Positions 4,816 to 20,595 of a stretch of 64,000 nt of DNA are shown here, one piece after another. The stretch spans positions 96,001 to 160,000 of the forward strand of contig JAVZLQ010000003.1 of NCBI GenBank assembly GCA_038883655.1, in the 5' to 3' direction. Position numbers and translations under genes: made by a program. The DNA is from Candidatus Bathyarchaeia archaeon (GTDB lineage Archaea > Thermoproteota > Bathyarchaeia > Bathyarchaeales > Bathycorpusculaceae). The first letter of the stretch is position 1. Each line of letters opens with the position of its first letter. The notes under the pieces are model-generated. The model saw only the letters and a program-made list of their open reading frames with translations. It was not told where the DNA came from and searched no databases.

Positions 4816-4922
4816 GTTTTAACCGTCGGATTCTTCTAGAAATGTTTATATAGAAGCGTTTTCCGTCTAAAATTTGCTTGTTTAACCTCACCTATCACAC
4901 CAAGAGTGTGGAGGTGATGGGA

Positions 4923-17438: not shown

Positions 17439-17520
17439 TTGAATTTGTTAGGACGTTAACCTTAAATTTAAGCGGAACAATTGCACTTGTCTAAAAAGCG
17501 CGGAGGGAGGATACAGGCAC

Positions 17521-18495
17521 GTGTTGAAAAAGGCATCTAGACCCGTCATTGTTGTTCATGGAGGCGCTGGAGCTTGGCATCCAGAACGAAGTCAACATGG
17601 GTTGGAAGGTGTTAAGCGTGCGGCGAAAATTGGCTTTGACATTTTGAGCAGAGGCGGAAGCGCTGTTGATAGTGTCGTAGAGGCTGTTGCGGTTTTGGAG
17701 GATGATGGTTCCTTTAATGCTGGTTATGGCTCAAGCCTGAATATTGAGCGTGAAATCGAGATGGAAGCCTCTGTTATGGATGGAAAAACCCTAAACGCTG
17801 GTGCTGTTGGACTCTTGAGGGATATTAGAAACCCGGTTCGTTTAGCGAGAATAGTTATGGAGAAAACTGACCACGTTTTTGTTGTCGGCGAGGGCGCTGA
17901 AAGACTTGCCAAAATTTATAACCTTGAGAGGAGAAACCCGCTGACGGAGCTTAGGCTAAAGTATTACGAGACGTACAAGAAGGCTTTGCTTGAGGGAAAG
18001 TATGAGTTGCCAAGGCTTCGTGAGCTGGTAAAGAGTTTTCCAGAAATGTTTAAGCTTGAAACTGTTGGGGCGGTTGCCCTAGACAAGGATGGCAATGTTG
18101 CGGCTGCAACCTCAACAGGGGGATTCCCGCTTAAGCTTCCCGGAAGAATCGGCGACTCACCATCAATTGGATGTGGCACCTACGCGGATAACAATTCTGG
18201 AGCCTGTTCAGCCACGGGTGTAGGCGAAATAGCGATAAAGCTTGTTTTGGCAAAGACTGTTTGCAATTACATGGAAAGCGGTAGAACAGCACAAGAGGCT
18301 GTTGAGATGGCGATAAAACTTGTTAATAAGAGGATAGCTGGAGTTTACAATCACATGGGTTTGATTGCCGTTGACGTTTATGGCAGGTTTGGCGCAGCGC
18401 ATAATTCTCCAAATCTCTGCTGGGCTTACGCTACATCGGAAACTTCAGAGCCAGTAGCCTCGCTAACCGCGAAAATGGTGAAGGAAAGTTTGTAG
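17521..18495 (+). CDS. Isoaspartyl peptidase/L-asparaginase (Ntn hydrolase)
   Basis: VVHGGAG, FNAGYGS, autocleavage site E|TVGAVA, ATSTGG, PGRIGDSP. Confidence 0.93.
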   Translation: MLKKASRPVIVVHGGAGAWHPERSQHGLEGVKRAAKIGFDILSRGGSAVDSVVEAVAVLEDDGSFNAGYGSSLNIEREIEMEASVMDGKTLNAGAVGLLRDIRNPVRLARIVMEKTDHVFVVGEGAERLAKIYNLERRNPLTELRLKYYETYKKALLEGKYELPRLRELVKSFPEMFKLETVGAVALDKDGNVAAATSTGGFPLKLPGRIGDSPSIGCGTYADNNSGACSATGVGEIAIKLVLAKTVCNYMESGRTAQEAVEMAIKLVNKRIAGVYNHMGLIAVDVYGRFGAAHNSPNLCWAYATSETSEPVASLTAKMVKESL

Positions 18496-18614
18496 GTTGC
18501 ATGTGAAAGTTTGCTTTAGTGATGCGTTTATCGACAGTTGCCGAAGAAAAATGTTTAAAATGTTGTTGTGCTGCTTCACTACGCACCGACAAAAGTTTGG
18601 GAGGTGAAAATGGA

Positions 18615-18686
18615 ATGCGAGAGGAAGAGGAAGAATGGGAAGAAGACTGGGAAGAAGAGGAAGAGTGGGAAGAGGAAGAATGGTAA
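18615..18686 (+). CDS. Acidic Trp-repeat micro-protein MREEEEEWEEDWEEEEEWEEEEW (23 aa)
   Basis: SD GGAGGTGA at 18600-18607, ATG 7 nt downstream; BRE/TATA-like GAAGAAAAATGTTTAAAA at about 18543-18560; T-rich tract after the stop; mixed GAA/GAG codons. Confidence 0.6.
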   Translation: MREEEEEWEEDWEEEEEWEEEEW

Positions 18687-18804
18687 GCTTTTAAGCTTAT
18701 AGTCTCGTTTTGCTTTTTCTTTCATAAAATTTTCGTTACAATTTTGCCGTTTTTAGGCGCATGTTTATAACCAACAAGTGGTTTCCTTCATTTTCGAGTT
18801 TACG

Positions 18805-20595
18805 ATGACACGCGTAGCGGTGTTGGACGCTGACAAATGTAAACCGAAACGTTGCGGTAGATTATGCTATCGTTTCTGTCCAATCGTTAGAAGCCGCGTT
18901 GAAGCCATTAAATTTGATAACGAAAAGCCAGTAATTGTTGAGTCCCTATGCACTGGATGCGGAATATGCATAAAAAAGTGCCCTTTTAAGGCGATATCCA
19001 TAGTCAACCTTCCAGATGAGTTGGAAAAGGATTGCAGCCACCGCTTTGGAGAAAATACATTCAAACTTTATAGGCTGCCAACACCCTCTGAAGGTGTTGT
19101 TTTGGGATTGCTTGGACAGAACGGCATCGGCAAAACAACAACGCTAAAGATACTTTCTGGCGAGGTAAAACTTAACCTTGGAAGGTACGCTGAACCACCA
19201 GGCTGGGAAGAAATCATCACGCATTTTAGGGGTTCAACGCTTCAGGATTATTTTGCAAAGATGGCTGGTGGAAAACTCAAGGTTGTGCACAAACCGCAGT
19301 ATGTAGATAAAATTTCGAAGGTTGTTTCTGGCAATGTTGGAGAACTCCTAGAAAAAGTGGATGAAAGGGGAAAAATGACAAAATTAGCCGAGCAGCTTGA
19401 ACTGAAACCACTTTGGAACCGCCCACTTGAAGTTTTAAGCGGAGGCGAGCTTCAGCGGGTTGCTGTTGCCGCGGCAATCTGCCGAGAAGCAAACGTTTAC
19501 CTTTTCGACGAACCGTCAAGCTACTTGGATGTGAAGCAGAGGCTTGAGGTAGCCAAAGCAATAAGAAGTTTGAAAGACGATGGGAAAACAATAATTGTTG
19601 CAGAACATGACCTCGCCGTAATCGATTACCTTTCAGACCAAATATGCATATTTTATGGGGAGCCGGGCGTTTACGGCGTGGTTTCAAACGTTCACGGCGT
19701 ACGAGTGGGCATAAACATTTACTTGCAGGGTTATATTCCAGACGAGAATGTTCGCTTTAGAAAGGAATCGATAATTTTCCATGAGAAGCCGCCAACGGTG
19801 AGCTTCGGCGTCGGCGAAACAATGCTGAAATGGGATAGAATTGAAAAAACTTATGAGGGGTTTAGGCTCGTTGCTAATGCTGGCGAAGTAAAACGCGGAG
19901 AAATCATCGGTATTCTGGGGCCCAACGGTATAGGCAAGACAACATTCATTAAGATTCTCGCTGGAATCGAGGAGGCTGACGATGGCAAAAAGTTCGACAC
20001 GCTTAAAGTGAGTTATAAGCCGCAGTACATATCTGCCGAGTATGAAGGAACGGTCCAAGAACTTCTAATAAGCGTGGCAAAAGAGAATTTCAATTCAAGC
20101 TGGTACAGAACGGAGATAATTAATCCTTTAAAACTGGATTTCCTCTTTGACAGAAAAGTCAATGAACTAAGCGGAGGCGAACTACAGAAAGTAGCCATAG
20201 CAACATGTCTATCAAGGCAAGCGGAGCTTTACTTGCTTGATGAGCCAAGCGCATACTTAGATGTTGAAGAAAGGCTGAACATGGCTAGGGCGGTCCGCAG
20301 AGTCGTTGAAAACTACAACGCAACAGCCTTTGTAGTCGAGCATGACGTTGTTGCCCAAGACTTTATCGCAGACCGCCTAATGGTGTTCACAGGAGAACCG
20401 GGCGTTAGAGGCTTTGCAAATTCGCCGACAACTCTAAGAGACGGCATGAACACGTTCTTGAAGGAGATGGGCGTTACTTTCAGAAGAGACCCAGCGACTA
20501 GGAGACCAAGAGTTAACAAGGAAGGCTCGAAGCTTGACAAATTTCAAAAGGAGATCGGAGAATACTATTATGTTCGTTCGTTGGATAAAGAGTGA
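18805..20595 (+). CDS. rli: Ribosome recycling ATPase ABCE1/RLI
   Basis: N-terminal FeS domain (CKPKRC..C..CP; CTGCGICIKKCP) and two NBDs (GQNGIGKT, GPNGIGKT, LSGGELQ). Confidence 0.97.
   Translation: MTRVAVLDADKCKPKRCGRLCYRFCPIVRSRVEAIKFDNEKPVIVESLCTGCGICIKKCPFKAISIVNLPDELEKDCSHRFGENTFKLYRLPTPSEGVVLGLLGQNGIGKTTTLKILSGEVKLNLGRYAEPPGWEEIITHFRGSTLQDYFAKMAGGKLKVVHKPQYVDKISKVVSGNVGELLEKVDERGKMTKLAEQLELKPLWNRPLEVLSGGELQRVAVAAAICREANVYLFDEPSSYLDVKQRLEVAKAIRSLKDDGKTIIVAEHDLAVIDYLSDQICIFYGEPGVYGVVSNVHGVRVGINIYLQGYIPDENVRFRKESIIFHEKPPTVSFGVGETMLKWDRIEKTYEGFRLVANAGEVKRGEIIGILGPNGIGKTTFIKILAGIEEADDGKKFDTLKVSYKPQYISAEYEGTVQELLISVAKENFNSSWYRTEIINPLKLDFLFDRKVNELSGGELQKVAIATCLSRQAELYLLDEPSAYLDVEERLNMARAVRRVVENYNATAFVVEHDVVAQDFIADRLMVFTGEPGVRGFANSPTTLRDGMNTFLKEMGVTFRRDPATRRPRVNKEGSKLDKFQKEIGEYYYVRSLDKE

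Follow-up and report, generated by a model that had tools for sequence, protein, structure and literature searches.

All archaea and eukaryotes have the ribosome-recycling ATPase ABCE1 and cannot do without it, and two acidic segments carrying hydrophobic or aromatic residues are known to act on it. One is the C-terminal tail of aP1, the stalk protein of archaea, a tail that passages of PMC6125642 describe as binding a cavity of nucleotide-binding domain 1 (NBD1) via Leu103, Leu106 and Phe107, as needed for the ribosome-dependent ATPase activity of ABCE1, and as binding translational GTPases as well. [quoted passage not shown] Here we describe a micro-gene at positions 18615-18686 of a 64,000-nucleotide stretch of DNA from Candidatus Bathyarchaeia archaeon (the whole stretch is called the window below). 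It lies upstream of the ABCE1 gene, is predicted to encode a free 23-residue peptide made largely of Glu and Trp, and recurs beside ABCE1 in many other archaea.

The peptide is much as a first-pass annotation, made from the letters of the window alone, had described it, with 17 of 23 residues acidic (16 Glu and 1 Asp; 74%), EEEEE at residues 3-7, and Trp spaced every 4-6 residues at positions 8, 12, 18 and 23, the last being the C-terminus. For coding statistics we pooled 80 copies from two ABCE1-centred sets, 78 of them distinct, which were not selected for a terminal Trp. The distinct copies range from 15 to 52 codons (median 31) and never lose the frame; the frame-breaking indels by which the annotation proposed to judge its own claim were not seen. 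Their last four residues are Glu in 73, Glu in 74, Glu in 76 and Trp in 74 of the 78. Pooled composition is 64.6% Glu, 13.1% Trp, 9.4% Asp and 3.2% Phe, and the commonest gap between successive aromatic residues is 5.

Set against eIF3j/Hcr1, the peptide has in common an acidic stretch with Trp and a tie to ABCE1, here a genomic one; this is a resemblance and not homology. eIF3j has a dimeric helical bundle and a basic C-terminal tail in the mRNA channel, whereas the archaeal product is a 15-52-residue repeat ending in Trp, and neither the dimerisation bundle nor the basic tail is present in its 23 residues or across the copies. As to membership of the eIF3j family, no Pfam family was returned at E ≤ 1 for the window peptide or for a Sulfolobales copy. 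To our knowledge eIF3j, which is about 250-270 residues long, is absent from archaea, as is eIF3b, the mapped partner of the NTA. The eIF3j N-terminus reaches the NBD1/NBD2 cleft of ABCE1 on the small subunit, as described in passages of PMC7780240.

The aP1 tail is likewise a flexible acidic segment with an aromatic or hydrophobic end, and its described targets are NBD1 of ABCE1 and the translational GTPases (passages of PMC6125642). Its pocket is largely kept in the window: by our own reading of an alignment, 10 of the 13 contact residues listed in PMC6125642 are identical in the window ABCE1, the changes being Val162 to His, Leu169 to Lys and Ala173 to Val. The aP1 tail, however, is a short amphipathic helix that binds via Leu, Leu and Phe and ends in Gly, whereas the micro-peptide ends in EEEW, and the former is tethered to the ribosome whereas the latter would be free. 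The micro-peptide has no Pfam match and is not part of a Ribosomal_60s (PF00428) protein, and in place of a stalk-type Leu-x-x-Leu-Phe-Gly end, 74 of 78 copies end in Trp. The genome retains a normal aP1 ending in EEEALEGLGALFG (tail GLGALFG), encoded by a single PF00428 gene elsewhere in it, on G000:C1. The stand-alone micro-gene and the ABCE1 link proposed in the first-pass annotation hold; its roles of nucleic-acid mimic, stalk-tail mimic or chaperone are candidates, the stalk-tail one lacking the stalk-type end in a genome that keeps its own aP1. Our best guess is that the micro-peptide would work like the eIF3j NTA or the stalk tail; it is a member of neither, membership failing on homology, architecture and end motif.

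The micro-gene sits inside the 309-nt spacer between an Asparaginase_2 gene (17521-18495) and ABCE1 (ATG at 18805). The promoter-like element, SD sequence, ATG, stop, inverted repeat and T-rich tract all lie where they had first been annotated, and the parts are as follows:

18532-18544, + strand: imperfect dyad CGACAGTTGCCGA, a candidate regulator-binding site 22 nt upstream of the TATA element
18543-18560, + strand: GAAGAAAAATGTTTAAAA, a promoter resembling a transcription factor B recognition element (BRE) with TATA box, TATA core TTTAAAA at 18554-18560
18577-18587, + strand: conserved block CACTACGCACC, a putative transcription-start region judged by its spacing from the TATA element
18600-18607, + strand: Shine-Dalgarno (SD) sequence GGAGGTGA, 7 nt before the ATG
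18615-18686, + strand: micro-gene coding sequence of 23 codons, MREEEEEWEEDWEEEEEWEEEEW followed by TAA; the last codon, TGG, is at 18681-18683 and the TAA at 18684-18686
18684-18699: inverted repeat TAAGCTTTTAAGCTTA, which overlaps and follows the micro-gene stop
18707-18723, + strand: T-rich tract GTTTTGCTTTTTCTTTC, a candidate archaeal oligo-T terminator, with termination predicted
18764-18770, + strand: TATA box TTTATAA, the predicted promoter of ABCE1 itself, 35-41 nt before the ABCE1 ATG
18805-20595, + strand: ABCE1, ribosome-recycling ATPase, with Pfam domains Fer4_RLI, Fer4 and two ABC_tran

The identity of the last gene is secure, with an E value of 2.4e-215 against the solved archaeal ABCE1 3j15_B. 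An alignment of 18 copies resolves four conserved blocks, namely the dyad with the BRE/TATA, the SD, the coding region and the T-tract, with variable DNA between them. CGAAnaAAAAtgnTTAAA is the best-conserved non-coding block among the 18 relatives, and a CGACA-N5-CGA dyad stands at a fixed distance of 22 nt from TTAAA in 14 of the 18 aligned family and order relatives. The longer dyad motif occurs once in the whole genome, and the dyad at 18532-18544 looks like the operator of some regulator. The CACTACGCACC block has the consensus CACTAnGCAC in alignment A2. The 8-mer GGAGGTGA is identical to that preceding the thermosome gene at 4910-4917, as first noted, and has no third match in the window. 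Past the stop, the inverted repeat and the T-tract fared differently: both are present, but conservation of the hairpin stops at the genus, while that of the T-tract goes beyond it, a TTTTTCTTT-like tract being kept 25-45 nt past the stop in alignment A2. catATTTATAAc is kept before ABCE1 in most of the relatives' loci examined; because ABCE1 has its own TATA box, it presumably need not rely on read-through from the micro-gene. A scan of 17500-19500 against Rfam gave no family at E ≤ 1, and a scan for sigma-70 promoters and hairpin terminators, whose model is bacterial and the host archaeal, gave nothing relevant. Judged by these elements, the micro-gene is probably a genuine, independently transcribed unit with its own predicted regulated BRE/TATA promoter, strong SD and oligo-T terminator.

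The purine tract is open in other frames too, both in the +1 frame and on the minus strand (18725-18579, 48 aa), and openness alone therefore says nothing about coding. The codons are more telling. In the pooled copies the Glu codons are mixed (944 GAA and 610 GAG), bearing out the coding-like third-position variation reported at first, and 227 Asp codons (137 GAC and 90 GAT) interrupt the purine run; this mixing and tolerance place selection on the peptide rather than on an RNA rich in purines. The stop codons of the 78 distinct copies vary as well (TAA in 33, TAG in 29 and TGA in 16). Translation predicts just such a pattern, with Trp kept before a freely varying stop, changes of length in frame, free use of GAA and GAG, and the Asp codons, whereas a repeat or RNA element does not. 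Among the 25 order-level copies, of which the window's is one, a reading by eye places GGAGGTG 5-9 nt ahead of the start in 23, with near-matches in the other 2; the start codon is ATG in 17, TTG in 5 and GTG in 3, and the terminal Trp is present in 22. Within the 1,423,015-base genome, this is the single case in all six frames of a frame ending in (D/E)3-W-stop, and the only SD-led open reading frame (ORF) of 10-50 aa with at least 50% Asp and Glu. We therefore consider it very probable that 18615-18686 is a real translated gene.

Overlapping the Glu/Trp ORF entirely, a +1 frame at 18610-18702 (+ strand) begins with an ATG five bases before the micro-gene start and encodes a 30-aa Lys/Arg-rich peptide, MECERKRKNGKK...; a comparable basic overlapping ORF is seen in the Sulfolobaceae-type locus L290. 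As a second gene this frame was rejected as probably incidental, a nearby ATG being present in only 13 of 80 copies. No Lys-rich micro-ORF adjoins the micro-gene in its own genome, where other SD-led Lys/Arg-rich short ORFs lie far away. Outside the window, at G000:C3:261507 (+ strand), an SD-led 37-aa Arg/Lys-rich ORF, MSREQDSRRKAKES..., is the genome's only other strongly charged, ATG-started, SD-led micro-ORF.

Gene callers had overlooked the product, as the first-pass annotation anticipated. In an exact look-up of 10 peptides against about 15 billion public proteins, 9 were absent, the window's among them, and the tenth was unnamed; no Pfam or NCBIfam family matches the micro-peptide. A HMMER search with a 51-residue relative yielded 3,286 word candidates, none at E ≤ 0.001, all being removed by the composition correction; the low-complexity query defeats the method, so that fused forms are known from the pattern scan only (L076 and L031, described below). 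The best score in the ESM Atlas was 0.78, with all matches unnamed and uninformative. Searches of open PubMed Central (PMC) and bioRxiv found no paper that describes such a gene, although subscription papers or supplementary tables of archaeal transcriptomes could mention one.

As for expression, no RNA data set was listed for the stretch, and the one raw-read RNA run of the same study (X3) gave 0 reads on it with about 12% of the run read, too little for a test. In two data sets that are labelled metatranscriptomic and are probably DNA (X1 and X2), contigs cover 18565-18689 and resume at 18789 and 18802, none crossing 18690-18788. The gap ends near the expected start of the ABCE1 transcript, which is suggestive only, as contigs cannot show RNA ends and a gap between them is no proof.

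The link to ABCE1 was approached from both sides. Starting from ABCE1, which was found in every one of the 41 genomes sampled from the genus, family and order, we took 30 loci, 29 of them from relatives, one of which was short of upstream DNA. A Glu/Trp micro-ORF lies 104-252 nt before ABCE1 in 24 of the 28 usable relatives; it was not found upstream of ABCE1 in the other four (L024, L026, L029 and L030). For the phylum we drew 141 genomes evenly, 139 of which have ABCE1; 1 kb of upstream DNA was taken for 135, of which 132 were usable, and a micro-ORF was counted when a frame had at least 10 Asp or Glu and at least 2 Trp, Phe or Tyr in the last 16 residues before its stop. By this measure it occurs near ABCE1 in 55 of 132 genomes and 14 of 30 families. 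Four families, for example, have it throughout (13 of 13, 14 of 14, 5 of 5 and 3 of 3 genomes), and four others have it in 0 of 18, 0 of 12, 0 of 7 and 0 of 6. Under random placement, a single-copy gene would be expected within 1 kb of ABCE1 in about 0.1 of 132 genomes.

Named records taken via ABCE1 carry the micro-ORF in 16 of 22 loci. It is present in all 10 Sulfolobales-type records, upstream by 42-79 nt (these include Ca. Aramenus, Acidianus hospitalis, Ca. Acidianus copahuensis, Stygiolobus, Saccharolobus and others), in 3 Methanomethylicota records at 339-344 nt, and in 3 of 4 from Bathyarchaeia. Named loci where it was not seen comprise 2 Thermoplasmata, 1 Iainarchaeum, 1 Heimdallarchaeota and 2 unclassified archaeal records. 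In one further family (L226, L229, L230, L231, L240 and L241), ABCE1 itself has an insertion of about 240-330 residues inside the second Fe-S motif, after CIGCGIC and ending VVHNC, which resembles an intein; no micro-ORF lies upstream of ABCE1 there.

Starting from the peptide, we scanned one genome per species, 185,579 bacterial and archaeal species in all, for exact matches to TGGGARGARGARGARTGGTRR (WEEEEW-stop), which returned at least 119 loci, nearly all archaeal. Neighbours were counted in the 80 of these loci that were listed with 2.5-kb flanks. Of these, 61 have ABCE1 downstream on the same strand (at no more than 300 nt in 46, at 301-1000 nt in 12 and farther off than 1000 nt in 3) and 4 have it divergently upstream, so that the micro-ORF stands beside ABCE1 in 65 of 80. 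The link first noticed in one genome is thus real and far wider. ABCE1 is out of reach in the remaining 15, which consist of 5 loci with bacterial titles, 2 ends of longer proteins and 8 intact unlinked micro-ORFs. Of the five bacterial-titled loci, four look like chance matches and one (L053) like a true copy at a contig end. The two longer proteins are a 64-aa four-Cys zinc-ribbon protein in a Hadarchaeota record (L076, 2327-2521) and a 596-aa protein in a Nanoarchaeia record (L031, 738-2528) that by eye resembles topoisomerase VI subunit B; both end in WEEEEW-stop, and these tails may be fused or convergent uses of that end. Among the Desulfurococcales-type loci (L033, L061, L100, L044, L095 and L105), S17e-like, TFS/RpoM-like zinc-ribbon, thermosome-like and fructose-bisphosphatase-like genes (by eye) recur as neighbours whether or not ABCE1 is present.

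Several arrangements bear on whether the micro-gene works in trans or as a leader of ABCE1. It is divergent from ABCE1 in L061 (a complete Thermogladius chromosome), L084, L092 and L100. Intact copies without linkage come to at least 11, namely 8 from the peptide scan and one each in G034, G050 and G139, which belong to families without an ABCE1-linked copy; some of these have convergent neighbours only, that is, no downstream gene to regulate. At 15 of the 80 listed loci, whole genes stand between an intact micro-gene and ABCE1, among them, by eye, VapBC-like pairs and a TFS-like zinc-ribbon gene. Divergent and unlinked copies, inserted genes, the micro-gene's own promoter and T-tract, and the TATA box of ABCE1 together favour a trans-acting peptide over a leader, and we think it likely from these sequences that the peptide acts in trans. 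In Bathyarchaeia, L063, L067, L085 and L110 have a small gene followed by a PIN/VapC-like gene (by eye) inserted between the micro-gene and ABCE1, and in L075 the pair lies upstream of the micro-gene, which is intact in all of these loci.

The micro-gene probably encodes a small helper of protein synthesis, to judge from its sequence and setting. As the main explanation we propose a free acidic/Trp docking peptide that would modulate ABCE1 on or off the small subunit, within the machinery that joins recycling to initiation, and we give this, on grounds of analogy, a probability of roughly 45%. It is ranked first because ABCE1 is the recurrent genomic partner and because the two acidic hydrophobic or aromatic segments introduced above are known on ABCE1. 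The product would be a disordered, strongly anionic peptide with acidic runs of 2-5 residues, Trp every 4-6 residues and an EEEW-COOH end, serving the ABCE1-dependent steps between ribosome recycling and re-initiation. The acidic runs would steer it electrostatically to a basic surface of ABCE1, the small subunit or both, and the Trp side chains, chiefly that of the C-terminal Trp with its free carboxylate, would fill hydrophobic pockets. Docking would then modulate the recruitment of ABCE1, the timing of its ATPase or its release, as the eIF3j/Hcr1 acidic motif and the aP1 tail do. That the partner is ABCE1 or the ribosome machinery around it has, in our view, slightly less than an even chance, and the NBD1 pocket or cleft is an unlikely candidate for the exact docking site. 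A more specific version, in which TACK (Thaumarchaeota, Aigarchaeota, Crenarchaeota and Korarchaeota) archaea encode the working part of eIF3j as a free 15-52-residue poly-Glu/Trp micro-protein that inserts Trp into the stalk/eIF3j site of ABCE1 (NBD1 pocket or NBD1-NBD2 cleft), contacts nearby basic small-subunit proteins, and times ATP hydrolysis and release from the 30S subunit so as to couple recycling of the ribosome to its next initiation, is by analogy conceivable and rather unlikely.

A number of observations weigh against the docking explanation. No peptide lies within 1 kb of ABCE1 in 77 of the 132 phylum genomes, and a genome-wide pattern search found no copy in 6 of 10 genomes from families without a linked copy; missing from many genomes, the peptide is therefore not a universal ABCE1 cofactor. 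Unlinked copies imply that adjacency to ABCE1 is not required. The linkage may partly be inherited gene order, relatives not being independent, yet it holds across classes and inversions. An ABCE1 alignment of 25 lineages with the gene and 20 without has no column that separates the two (best class overlap 0.34), and nothing in the peptide corresponds to the LxxLF motif, hydrophobic and helix-forming, by which the NBD1 pocket is filled. Acidic and aromatic peptides of low complexity could bind many basic proteins, and the transcript, translation and binding of the micro-gene product are all predictions from sequence. A complex prediction that paired an ABCE1 of Sulfolobaceae type (alignment A1) with the 34-residue peptide belonging to it scored 0.01 against a mark of 0.32 and had no controls, so that it speaks neither for nor against binding.

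Within the alignment of lineages with and without the gene, ABCE1 residues 13, 523 and 169 have weak tendencies with micro-gene presence, confounded by phylogeny. Residue 169 (about 19309-19311) corresponds to Leu169 of Pyrococcus ABCE1, which contacts aP1; it is Lys in the window and in 10 of the 25 ABCE1 sequences with a micro-gene, and Lys is not among the four commonest residues of the 20 without, a weak and phylogeny-confounded difference.

The alternative that survives best keeps the peptide in trans and takes it off ABCE1: a general polyanionic chaperone or nucleic-acid mimic, modelled on prothymosin-alpha and DNA-mimic proteins, which would shield or escort very basic proteins (Lys-rich small ribosomal, chromatin or RNA-binding) and whose position beside ABCE1 would reflect only co-expression with translation genes. 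A composition so dominated by Glu, Asp and Trp, with neither length nor register fixed, would suit such a role, as would the unlinked copies and the S17e-like and thermosome-like genes seen by eye near Desulfurococcales-type copies. The linkage, however, is specific to ABCE1 in several classes and in both orientations, the EEEW-COOH end suggests one defined pocket over bulk charge, and the genome has no adjoining Lys-rich micro-ORF; we consider this role unlikely.

A cis-acting leader is doubtful. Here an upstream ORF would sense translation status and tune ABCE1, its N-terminal acidic run destabilising the ribosome or its Trp-stop stalling termination, so that at low recycling capacity unrecycled ribosomes would continue reading or re-initiate at ABCE1. 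Arrest peptides often have Trp as a key residue, and MgtL is an example of a leader that acts by intrinsic ribosome destabilisation. Like acidic leader and arrest peptides, the micro-gene is a very short ORF that opens with an acidic run and mostly lies directly upstream of a translation-related gene, adjacency on the same strand being the dominant arrangement (46 of the 80 listed loci within 300 nt; 42-79 nt in Sulfolobales). When a nascent chain begins with consecutive acidic residues, the ribosome translating it is destabilised in bacterial, yeast and human systems, with recycling factors involved in the handling, as described in PMC9718836, PMC12673854 and PMC11162784; the window peptide has consecutive acidic residues near its N-terminus, which may have such an effect on archaeal ribosomes. 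Unlike those peptides, the micro-gene has its own predicted promoter, dyad and terminator and a conserved C-terminal residue, the T-tract after its stop and the separate ABCE1 TATA box, both read from sequence, being conserved as well. A leader should always be co-directional and contiguous, whereas among the 80 listed loci the intact copy is divergent in 4 and unlinked in 8, and other genes intervene in 15; with the 3 further unlinked copies at least 11 stand apart, some without a co-directional downstream gene.

Delivery of Fe-S clusters is a highly improbable function. The acidic-Trp end would act like a targeting signal of the CIA system (which assembles iron-sulfur clusters in the cytosol), or like the C-terminal Trp of Lto1, which is the needed element of that protein, and would recruit Rli1/ABCE1 for its two 4Fe-4S clusters. 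The likeness lies in a C-terminal acidic residue and Trp with free carboxylate, and in a functional tie to ABCE1: in eukaryotes a C-terminal [LIM]-[DES]-[WF] tripeptide marks CIA clients and adaptors for recognition, and Lto1 with Yae1 recruits Rli1 (PMC10245660 and PMC4523923), just as these peptides end in E-W-COOH with an Fe-S protein gene adjoining. Of the 78 copies, 74 have Trp at position -1 and 76 have Glu at position -2, but position -3 is Glu in 74 and not the Leu, Ile or Met of the motif given in PMC10245660, and the peptide has no adaptor domain, neither a deca-GX3 nor another client-binding module. Such a route would also need its eukaryotic receptor complex (Cia1-Cia2-Met18), and these archaea are not known to have Cia1 or Met18. 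Finally, that the tract is no gene, its open frames being a by-product of a GAR repeat, of low complexity or of a regulatory element in the RNA or DNA, is a next to negligible prospect. In its favour, three frames are open across the tract, triplet slippage would preserve any frame and the coding case is a prediction from sequence. Against it stand the conserved start, SD and Trp-stop, the use of all three stop codons, the Glu-to-Asp replacements by which the purine run is interrupted, the small share of copies (13 of 80) in which the +1 Lys/Arg frame has a nearby ATG, and the absence of an Rfam match.

The docking explanation stays in first place. As predicted from sequence, this is a phylum-wide micro-protein family without an earlier description, found in Bathyarchaeia, Methanomethylicota, Sulfolobales and Desulfurococcales-type lineages. 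It belongs to a class of low-complexity micro-proteins that gene callers and hidden Markov model tools systematically miss, and trypsin-based proteomics would overlook a peptide with almost no Lys or Arg. Its presence in cultivated Acidianus, Stygiolobus and Saccharolobus, for which genetics, ribosome profiling and in vitro splitting assays exist, makes the question testable. If archaeal recycling and initiation lack an accessory factor in present accounts, the micro-gene beside ABCE1 is a concrete candidate for it, and it bears on how the ATPase of ABCE1 is timed on the ribosome. If the eIF3j-like version were true, the peptide would be a missing archaeal translation factor, and the acidic-Trp motifs of eukaryotes could have it as their evolutionary forerunner or as an analogue.

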